Shown: positions 12,001 to 15,000 of the stretch, piece after piece
Layout of the letters: each line of letters begins with the position of its first letter
Numbering within the stretch: the stretch's first letter is position 1
Source of the DNA: Escherichia coli
GTDB lineage: Bacteria > Pseudomonadota > Gammaproteobacteria > Enterobacterales > Enterobacteriaceae
Reading direction: 5' to 3' (one strand)
Length of the DNA: 64,000 nucleotides
Assembly (NCBI RefSeq): GCF_965641715.1
Contig: NZ_OZ282453.1
Program-made: the position numbers

Positions 12001-15000
12001 ACGACAATATGTTATTGAGGAAAATAGCGCAAAAATGGTGTTATCCCGTGCGATAGATAATGCCATAGGCACATGGAGAAAAGACAATCCTAAAAATATT
12101 GCCGTATTGTCTTCAGGTGTTGTGCTTGCGCATAACGAGTCAGCTGATATCACCAAAGAAGTCATGACTTTGGTTGAAAAAGAAAATCTGGTTTTTAATA
12201 AATTACCCAAAGTGGAAGTGCACAATAAGAATGAAGAGAAACCAGAACAAAGTAAGTAATCACTAGATTCTGACGATTTCCAGAAGGGAGATTCAGCAGG
12301 CCAGCATCTGTAATCATTCAGATTTGCTGGCTTGCTGCTAAATATGGTTGCTAAGAAAAATAGCAGGCCAGTAATTTATTCAGATTACTGAATATAATAA
12401 TTTTTCAGGAACGGTTATGCTGAAGGTAGTATGTTTAATAGACACAATTATTTGCTGTGTCTAATATGAGGTGACATTTTTATGATCACTGACCAGCAAG
12501 ACTGACCCGTATTGATTAGCCTGATTATTGGCAACTTATTGGGGTAGTCATTTTGACATCGAATGGGGGAGGTTTCCAGTTAAGTTCACGAATGCATGAT
12601 GATTTGCGTTCACATATCGAAGTACTGGTTGGCTATACTAAGGATTTTAAGATAACTCACTGATTGTAAGTGGGTTATTGCGAGGGGGATGATAGATGGT
12701 GTCCCCTGCAGACATCTACTTGAAGCAGCAGGGGATTGATTGGAATGGTGTTTTTTAGATGTGAGAAATATTTTACCCGCTATTTTACCCATTGGCGCGG
12801 CTTAAGAGCTTATTTTTGAATTCACAATGGTCACGATATAACCATCTTGCTCGACCGTGGATAACTTTGGCTTTTGGCAGGTCGCCGGACTTAATCCGGT
12901 CGTAGATGAAGGTTTTACCAAAGCCAGTATCAGCCATGATGAATTTCAAATCAACCAGGGAATCAGGCTGTAGTTCGTGTTGCATGAGTGCTATCTCCGA
13001 ATAGGGAATCGAACCTGCAAATCAGGTAATAAAAAACCGCCATCAGGCGGATTGGTGTTCTTTCAGTTCTTCAATTCGAATATTGGTTACGTCTGCATGC
13101 GCTATCTGCGCCCATATCATCCAGTGGTTATAGCAGTCGTTGATGTTCTCTGCTTCGATAACCCTGTTGAATGGCTCTCCATTCCATTCACCTGTGACTC
13201 GGAAGTGCATTTATCATCTCCATAAAACAAAACTCGCCGTAGCGAGTTCAGATATAATATCCACCAAAGGCAGTAGTTGCTTGATGCTAAGAATTATTCA
13301 ATATCTATTCCTGTAATATCTTTTATCTTTTTCCTTGCAAAGCCTTTTGCTAGTGATTTTGAAACACTCATAAGTGTACTAATTCCCTCATCCTTAAAGT
13401 TTGTTTTTATAGCTTGCCAGACATCCTTTTGACGTAAGTCAGCAATAAAATCATGCCCTCTTGCTGTCAACCTCAGTGGTACTTCGATCCAACTATATCC
13501 AACACCTTCCCCTAACGCTTTGGACATTATATGACCGAACCCAGGTTTTCCATCAACCCTGACTATTAATTCGTAGTCACATAATAATCGCATATGGAAA
13601 ATAAAATCTTGGTCATATCTATTAAAGCCATTATCCTCTAGTTCACTAAGCATCGTGTCAGGGCCACGAGTTTTTTCGAATGCGATAAGTAGATCTTTTA
13701 GATATTGCTGGTCTAATTTCATTGCCGCCTCCGTGACATGTCACAGAGATTTATATCATTAATTTTGTTTCGTGCCAGCGTTTGGTCACCCAGCATTGTG
13801 AGTCACCATTACACGGGCATGAATTAACAGGAACTCTCTCGCCGCACTTACCTCAACGTTTTCTGCTGATCGATTTTATACGCCAGCGCACACGTGCATC
13901 ATCCTGGCGGCTCAGTAACGCGATGTACTCACCAAACTCGCAAGGCGCACGCCTGAAGCGACGCGTGGCACAGTTACGCTCCAGCATTTCAATTTCCTGA
14001 GCATCAAGTACAAGCTCCAGCTTACGCATACCGGATGATGCTTGCTTGGCTCTCCGATCGGCTTTGTGCTCTGTTGCTGATTTAGCCATTCTGCTTTTCC
14101 TGCATCAGGAGAAAGACAATCATGGCGGCGCGGATACTTCCGGTATCTTTTTACGCGATATTCCCCTTCAATGGCACATACAAGAAGAGAGCCATCAACA
14201 GGAGTGATTGAGGAATCGACAACCAGCAACGCTTAATTATCTATAGTGTCGTATTTGCTTCATAAAATATGGCGAATAACACAAAGCCCGCAGCAGCTCA
14301 TTGTGCGGGCTTTTCTTATACCTACTTCCTAGAGATAATTCTATGGAGGCATTAAATCAATACTGTCATTGGTAATATCATATTATCTAAAAGTCTTTCC
14401 ACTTTTAACATCTAGGTATATTCTGTTCGACAACGTCATTCCTCCGCAATATGTGAAATAGATGTTTTCACCCTTATTGCTTGATGCCATCCACCCTCCG
14501 ATTTCCTTAAAATCGCTTTCCGTGCAGACCCCTTCATTTATTAACTTCCTAGCTGCCGAAGAAAACTCTTTTTTGTATATACGGTAGTCATCAGATCCTT
14601 TGATTAAAGTATCATCTCCGCTCGCATTTTCAGCAGGATCTGATGGCCTTTCACTGCTAAGATCACTAAGTTTAACCCATTCTGAAAACTTTCCATTAAC
14701 GATTCCATTTTTTCTTGTGCAGGATTTATTACCTTCTTTAATATATTCGCTTTCCCCTCCAACACATGAGGCTGAATATGGCTCAGTTATACGAACCCAT
14801 TCACCTTTTTTTTCTAGAAAATCTACGCCTTCCCTGAAAAATAGTTTCCCAGCCACTCCACATTTACTTGAAGGGCAGGTATGTCTTTCCGTTCGATCAA
14901 CAACAACCCATAGTTTTGATTCATTTTTTGCCATTGCCGATGGTATTTGAGATGAGACAATTAACGTAAGCCCTAAAATTAGTATTGATTTTTTCATTGT

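Follow-up and report, generated by a model that had tools for sequence, protein, structure and literature searches.

Morons are extra genes in phage genomes that are marked by a deviant guanine–cytosine (GC) content, a promoter and terminator of their own, and horizontal spread (PMC3594210). The examples used for comparison here are gene 15 of HK97, whose product (gp15) resides in the inner membrane, and lom and bor of lambda, which encode an outer-membrane protein and a lipoprotein, respectively (PMC3594210). A second point of reference is Spackle of phage T4, a periplasmic inhibitor of the tail-spike lysozyme gp5 (PMC7677548). Here we describe a gene for a 204-amino-acid (aa) protein, located on the minus strand at positions 14383–14997 of a 64,000-nucleotide (nt) stretch of Escherichia coli contig NZ_OZ282453.1 (assembly GCF_965641715.1); this whole stretch is referred to as the window. 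The gene is part of a lambdoid prophage, in which it occupies the far end of the early-left (PL) operon, within an interval that we tentatively interpret as a mosaic in which it is the lone cargo, an autonomous moron cassette whose product may be a periplasmic protein of envelope protection or exclusion.

The 204-aa gene has several traits in common with the morons named above. It is an extra gene between conserved phage genes, deviates in GC content, possesses its own terminator and a promoter-like element, occupies varied positions in unrelated phages, and encodes an envelope-targeted product. Presence in some and absence from other related phages, together with varied insertion sites, was likewise observed (lambdoid, P1-like, Aeromonas, and other viral contexts). 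It differs from the morons in that its expression from the repressed prophage is only putative and its promoter match is weak. The product, in contrast to gp15, Lom, and Bor, is a predicted soluble periplasmic SH3b protein.

The limits of the cassette could be drawn from a P1/P7-like contig of Escherichia fergusonii (L031). Window positions 14381–15139 match this contig at 85% identity over 761 bp, with otherwise unrelated flanks, and thus, the conserved cassette consists of the open reading frame (ORF) plus 142 bp upstream. The contig carries a C1 repressor, a Cre-like recombinase, hot, and an intact humD, and the cassette is located directly after humD. On the same contig (3681–7433), the cassette also adjoins genes for a Tad2-like protein and a dUTPase. 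The conserved 5' region (14998–15139, minus strand) includes a promoter-like element, a leader of ~93 nt, and a ribosome-binding site (RBS), AAGGA, 7 nt before the ATG. The promoter-like element, TTGAAG-N18-TACACT (15098–15127, minus strand), has the same two hexamers in E. coli and E. fergusonii, whereas six of its 18 spacer bases differ between the copies. Its score of 8.0 does not exceed the background of the window (median 7.5), and the element is therefore no more than suggestive.

Downstream of the gene is a GC-rich hairpin resembling an intrinsic terminator (AAAAGCCCGCAGC...GCUGCGGGCUUUGUGUUAUU, 14283–14314, minus strand) with a U-rich tail, and its predicted RNA fold has an energy of -22.9 kcal/mol (z = -2.3). 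Terminator-like hairpins were also detected downstream of homologues in three other contexts (L031, L068, and L070). The GC content of the cassette is 0.38, compared to 0.50 in the adjacent early genes; among homologues, it is below that of both flanks in Pseudomonas and below that of the left flank in Aeromonas. The ratio of non-synonymous to synonymous substitution rates (dN/dS) between the window gene and the E. fergusonii copy was 0.07 (63 synonymous and 25 non-synonymous differences), indicating strong constraint on the protein by purifying selection. The claim that the gene behaves as acquired cargo with a moron layout is supported by the sequence, given its deviant GC content, own terminator, conserved promoter-like element, varied insertion contexts, and purifying selection. 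The cassette of ~0.86 kb (~14283–15139) would be a mobile transcription unit comprising promoter-like element, leader, RBS, 204-aa ORF, and terminator. Illegitimate recombination would have placed it between an Ead/Ea22-like gene and humD, truncating both, and the truncated state of these two flanking genes in the window reads as a signature of such an event. A comparison with "empty" sites was uninformative, as the E. coli genomes with the neighboring DUF2513 gene but no cassette proved to contain prophage remnants truncated by IS1.

The properties of the protein that had been proposed from the sequence alone were largely borne out. Computed hydropathy agreed with a canonical Sec-type N-terminus (MKK / SILILGLTLIVSS / IPSAMA|K) that has an AxA cleavage site and a hydrophobic core with a Kyte–Doolittle maximum of 2.8. 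There is no lipobox cysteine, and residues 1–23 are disordered in the AlphaFold2 model. Among 40 aligned homologues, 11 have a lipobox instead of the AxA site, and all have either a signal peptide or a lipobox, which makes the family extracytoplasmic. The multiple cysteines number six (positions 41, 46, 78, 93, 158, and 184); C158 and C184 are invariant across the 40 homologues, and conservation of the remaining four is 90% or higher. The AlphaFold model was confident (predicted local distance difference test score 90) and contained an SH3b fold, in line with the SH3b-like motifs reported earlier. The domain layout is signal peptide (1–23), SH3b domain (~28–110) with a cysteine-rich insertion of ~30 residues, RPxDP linker, and C-terminal domain (~125–204). 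The Pfam profile SH3_3 (PF08239) scored 16.2 bits, below the gathering cutoff of 27, and two homologues passed it with 30.8 and 32.8 bits. There was no NCBIfam match from which the 204-aa protein or its 142-aa neighbor could be named, and no paper mentioning DUF2513 or the WP accessions of the proteins was found in the literature library searched.

The C-terminal domain is of alpha-alpha-beta-beta-beta topology, contains the invariant cysteine pair C158/C184, and is characterized by the motifs SDD...GGW...YFTYCGG...NRIYL. A profile search recovered it in 535 clusters (50% identity level), and its position in the protein was almost invariably C-terminal. It occurs as a stand-alone secreted protein or lipoprotein of ~100 aa, behind SH3b, and with N-terminal ankyrin or zinc-ribbon-plus-membrane modules; fusion to an enzyme domain was not seen among these clusters. 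Analysis of 28 of the C-terminal domains with Pfam gave no shared family, and no structural neighbor was found. A search of PDB sequences with the family profile returned only spurious matches to designed TIM barrels and weak SH3b matches. The domain has no invariant histidine, nor an invariant acidic residue outside the SDD motif, so an enzyme is unlikely.

SH3b domains are known as wall-binding modules of endolysins and NlpC/P60 hydrolases such as lysostaphin, the phiSM101 endolysin, and BT_1314. Unlike these, the 204-aa protein has no attached hydrolase, carries the cysteine-rich insertion, and is fused to an unclassified C-terminal domain. With T4 Spackle it shares small size, phage origin, export to the periplasm, and the lack of an enzymatic motif. 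Spackle, in contrast, lacks an SH3b domain and is the product of an early gene of a lytic phage, and neither sequence nor fold similarity between the two was detected. As a functional analogy for the exclusion of superinfecting phages, Spackle is thus a speculative one.

Of 5426 complete E. coli genomes, 131 carried the 204-aa gene, in almost all cases together with the same block, and 129 had it intact at full length. The integration modules beside it were either IntS/TorI at argW or a lambda-type int/xis next to ybhC. The gene is carried by the isolated phage Chlobot and occurred in one of 50,697 deposited phage genomes. Pseudomonas homologues are 60–69% identical, have the same length, and lie 80–100 bp downstream of a tyrosine integrase in small islands. 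These islands (L002 6402–12411; L005 6647–16615; L006–L008) measure 5–6 kb and carry the integrase followed by the 204-aa homologue; further genes encode proteins of 208/236, 105–108, 130–131 (weak DUF6971 match), and 333–337 aa and a KilA-N protein. The island neighbors had no PHROG assignment and no Pfam match other than KilA-N and the weak DUF6971, and gave no functional clue. Other homologues were located in an Aeromonas prophage, among insertion sequence elements, and in one plain chromosomal neighborhood. A scan of IMG/VR yielded 51 viral loci, with divergent copies beside terminase/portal genes or convergent to capsid/portal genes.

The sequence-only reading had seen no obvious lytic-cycle role for the secreted protein, and no such role is known for the 204-aa product, an exported, cysteine-rich protein with an SH3b domain. 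A lysogenic-conversion or exclusion factor, as it proposed, is a reasonable candidate role; PADLOC found no defense family. The mechanism that we favor would run as follows. The protein would be exported by Sec, cleaved after Ala23, and act in the periplasm, with its six conserved cysteines likely oxidized into three disulfides. Through its SH3b domain it would attach to peptidoglycan stem peptides, and the conserved, presumably non-enzymatic C-terminal domain would bind a partner. The most likely role would be protection of the lysogen envelope or exclusion, for example, by blocking an incoming lytic enzyme or an entry step.

Several observations weigh against this interpretation. The sigma-70 matches upstream of the 204-aa gene scored no higher than those in random 311-nt pieces of the window, and a consensus promoter scan of its strand gave no match. 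The conservation of the promoter-like element comes from only two independent lineages, with a chance expectation of ~7% at 80% identity. The gene is co-oriented with PL, and expression could therefore be limited to induction. In ATCC 8739 (L015 4228–4925), an IS1 element is inserted ~60 bp upstream of the start codon, between the putative promoter and the gene, and two other genomes have IS1 within the gene; these insertions indicate that the gene is dispensable. An SH3b domain with a 30-residue cysteine-rich insertion might also bind something other than peptidoglycan. Finally, PADLOC-DB v2 defense profiles gave no match at E ≤ 1 for the four proteins tested.

The orientation of the gene and the lack of an above-background promoter would also suit a lytic-cycle accessory expressed from PL after induction. 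It might be a periplasmic factor by which the wall is prepared or modulated, either for lysis or for the tail lysin of the phage itself. Under N-type antitermination, transcription would continue past the terminator, and SH3b domains are typical wall-binding modules of endolysins. We nevertheless regard such an accessory as unlikely. The protein has no catalytic domain, its gene is nearly absent from deposited phage genomes (the single case is given above), homologues occur in integrase islands outside phages and in a housekeeping setting on a chromosome, and some phages have the gene on the strand opposite to the head genes. The own terminator and the conserved leader also argue against it. 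The absence of catalytic residues in a small and, by prediction, disulfide-bonded periplasmic protein is compatible with an orphan immunity protein or inhibitor that benefits the host rather than acting against phages. Its targets would be peptidoglycan-degrading toxins such as type VI secretion system (T6SS) amidases or muramidases, host lysozyme, or colicin M-type toxins. The lipoproteins and stand-alone secreted forms of the C-terminal domain within the family, and the spread on mobile elements across Pseudomonas, Aeromonas, and Escherichia, fit this idea. However, no effector or toxin gene was a consistent neighbor at the loci examined, and no similarity to known immunity or lysozyme-inhibitor folds was found, so that we consider it rather doubtful, if somewhat less so than the lytic accessory.

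It could also be asked whether the gene is a passenger without function, in an interval at the end of the early operon that consists entirely of decaying junk. Three of the neighbors are pseudogenes or remnants, IS1 is found in or beside the gene in a few genomes, and the neighboring DUF2513 gene shows a relaxed dN/dS of ~0.6 within E. coli, on only ~10–13 substitutions. Against this stand the dN/dS of the 204-aa gene itself, calculated over 63 synonymous differences, its full-length state in 129 genomes, and the homologues of the same length with 60–69% identity across genera, which leave a passenger the least probable of the explanations weighed here. Taken together, we rank envelope protection or exclusion first, with an immunity protein or inhibitor close behind, a PL-expressed lytic accessory third, and a passenger as unlikely.

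The two smaller ORFs of the block are of a different nature. All three minus-strand ORFs lie between torI and the lambda-like early-left genes, as had been described (13294–13722, 13853–14089, and 14383–14997), and the view that they are three independent cargo genes could be retained for the 204-aa gene only. The 78-aa ORF at 13853–14089 is the front part of a 112-aa gene (13751–14089, minus strand) related to phiV10p55 and epsilon15 gp49 (phrog_536, annotated as "transcriptional regulator"). Over 332 bp, 13751–14089 is 90% identical at the nucleotide level to phiV10p55, where the 112-aa gene is intact; the NCBI Prokaryotic Genome Annotation Pipeline (PGAP) labels the window copy "internal stop". 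Codon comparison with phiV10p55 revealed a single disruption, a TGC to TGA change at Cys79. The intact 112-aa frame with its C-terminal cysteine cluster, as found in the phrog_536 family, is thus not present, and compared to phiV10p55 the window copy has lost the cysteine-rich C-terminal 33 residues. Because the 112-aa frame is broken by this one TGA, the 78-aa ORF is a truncated pseudogene rather than an intact gene, and because 13751–13852 is the tail behind the stop, only 28 bp truly separate the 142-aa gene from the gene upstream of it. A relationship of the 78-aa ORF to the LexA-regulated YbfE was rejected, as the only indication was a weak, sub-threshold NCBIfam match (E = 0.018).

The inactivation of the phiV10p55-like gene occurred independently by lineage: the stop at Cys79 is found in the lineage of the window, a Cys40 to TGA change is found in ATCC 8739 and SZQ1, and strain YJ6 has kept an intact 112-aa allele. 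The copies compared were those at 13751–14089 in the window, L015 2869–3207 (ATCC 8739), L016 2869–3207, and L033 3458–3796. Both nonsense mutations replace cysteine codons. Selenocysteine incorporation or read-through at these TGA codons was set aside, as no feature speaks for it and an allele with an intact TGC codon is known.

The 142-aa gene (13294–13722, minus strand; phrog_585) encodes a DUF2513 protein of the winged-helix type, matching PF10711 with 42.7 bits (cutoff 29.6) over profile positions 1–100 of 100. DUF2513 homologues with 50–75% identity are present in prophages across Enterobacterales. In Cronobacter prophages, a 112-aa phiV10p55-like gene is followed, after a gap of 27 bp, by a DUF2513 gene, and the pair lies directly upstream of the small terminase gene, whereas the module in the window is near xis. 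In Serratia KplE1-like prophages, DUF2513 is also located in the early operon near the integrase. Gene order, the gap of 27–28 bp, and a palindrome are shared between the window and the Cronobacter prophages. This perfect 12-bp palindrome, GTGACATGTCAC, followed by GGAG, is located at 13733–13744 within the 28-bp gap before the DUF2513 gene, and it is kept together with GGAG in the equivalent Cronobacter gap (L023 4974–5000), where the proteins are ~60% identical. It folds into a hairpin that includes the RBS and could be an operator or an RBS-sequestering hairpin. Downstream of the gene is a terminator-like hairpin (13230–13249, minus strand). The phiV10p55-like and DUF2513 pair is an ordinary two-gene phage module, predicted to be co-transcribed, and not independent cargo.

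The earlier proposal of a separate promoter for each gene, based on 130–300 bp of upstream non-coding DNA, did not hold, given that the 78-aa ORF is a truncated pseudogene forming a tightly spaced pair with the DUF2513 gene. The ORF-to-ORF distances themselves were as described (130, 293, and 298 bp), but the gaps contain gene remnants, and no sigma-70 match in them exceeded the score given by random 311-nt pieces of the window. At 14122–14229 (minus strand), there is a remnant of HumD, a UmuD'-like protein, covering ~codons 47–81 of 129 (NCBIfam NF051876, E = 2.5e-14; phrog_10470). It is 86–90% identical at the nucleotide level to plasmid humD, lacks a complete S24 domain, and is a partial pseudogene according to PGAP. 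On the other side of the cassette, 15140–15295 (minus strand) holds a frameshifted C-terminal remnant of an Ead/Ea22-like gene, which PGAP likewise annotates as a frameshifted partial pseudogene. Within it, 15166–15244 is 86–87% identical at the nucleotide level to the 3' part of a 210-aa gene of ~110-kb phage-plasmids, with a matching peptide, and 15248–15292 matches Ead/Ea22 genes. At the equivalent site of these phage-plasmids (L018 and L019), 795 bp of AT-rich sequence, in which no long ORF is present, separate the 210-aa gene from humD. The N-terminal remnant of the Ead/Ea22-like gene forms an ORF at 15296–15547 (minus strand; Pfam Ead_Ea22, E = 2.2e-19), also a PGAP pseudogene. A scan of 12200–15900 with Rfam for RNAs in the spacers gave no match at E ≤ 1. 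A fourth small gene, of 55 aa (13043–13210, minus strand; phrog_676, unknown function), was found between torI and the block, followed by a terminator-like hairpin at 13037–13050. At the int/xis-proximal end of lambdoid prophages, what look like "intergenic promoters" can therefore be gene wreckage, a point of relevance to the automated calling of morons.

The prophage that harbors this block is ~44 kb long, apparently complete, and integrated at argW with IntS and TorI. It extends from the tRNA-Arg/intS end (tRNA-Arg at 56801–56875) to torI (12785–12985, minus strand), whose product, the excisionase and TorR inhibitor, is 100% identical to K-12 TorI. The gene set comprises CI/Cro/CII, O/P, the nin region, Q, lysis genes, head genes, and a baseplate-type tail. 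Within the PL operon, the block is the most distal part, with the Ead/Ea22-TraR-exo-bet-gam genes on one side and torI on the other. With CPS-53/KplE1 of K-12, the prophage shares argW, IntS, identical TorI, and the map position of the block next to torI. A comparison with K-12 yfdP–yfdT had been suggested; no homology was detected for any of the three ORFs (tblastn, best E = 0.42). In the region compared, only TorI is common to both, and yfdP, yfdQ, yfdR, yfdS, and yfdT are unrelated.

The 2.6 kb surrounding the three-ORF block are 100% identical to E. coli strain TL20. Despite this base-for-base match, coordinates drift by ~1.35 kb relative to TL20 between ~26,000 and 44,000, and the tRNA-Arg is found at 56801–56875 rather than at 55462 as expected from TL20; the drift means that the window carries an extra segment or that its strain differs from TL20. 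Adjacent tRNA-Asn and tRNA-Thr genes were observed at 26147–26302, between the Q antiterminator and holin genes, where the TL20 annotation has tRNA-Asn only. Within the baseplate/tail module, three plus-strand ORFs were noted: a 113-aa ORF with a signal peptide (45507–45848), a 266-aa ORF (45884–46684), and a 123-aa ORF overlapping the latter (46665–47036), which PGAP names a HEPN-domain protein in TL20. These ORFs (45507–47036) are probably further morons, or a HEPN-based toxin or defense pair. Just beyond the prophage end (3762–12259), two further ORFs were observed. One encodes a 2639-aa autotransporter, which the TL20 annotation calls phase-variable adhesin UpaE; the other, of 176 aa (11729–12259), is given there as hypothetical only.

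A moron with an envelope-targeted product amid decayed genes is a known phenomenon, and the protein family described here is uncharacterized. It is conceivable, though improbable on present evidence, that the C-terminal domain of ~85 residues is an unrecognized and widespread extracytoplasmic domain that, tethered to peptidoglycan, inhibits incoming enzymes that degrade the wall, for example, tail lysins or T6SS effectors. Its carriers would be phages, phage-plasmids, and integrase islands, and it would represent a new class of periplasmic exclusion or protection proteins. If expressed in lysogens, the 204-aa gene would add an uncharacterized envelope protein to ~2% of E. coli genomes, with relatives on mobile elements of Pseudomonas and Aeromonas. 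If a phage-exclusion, lysozyme, or T6SS phenotype were found, several hundred protein clusters would be annotated at once.

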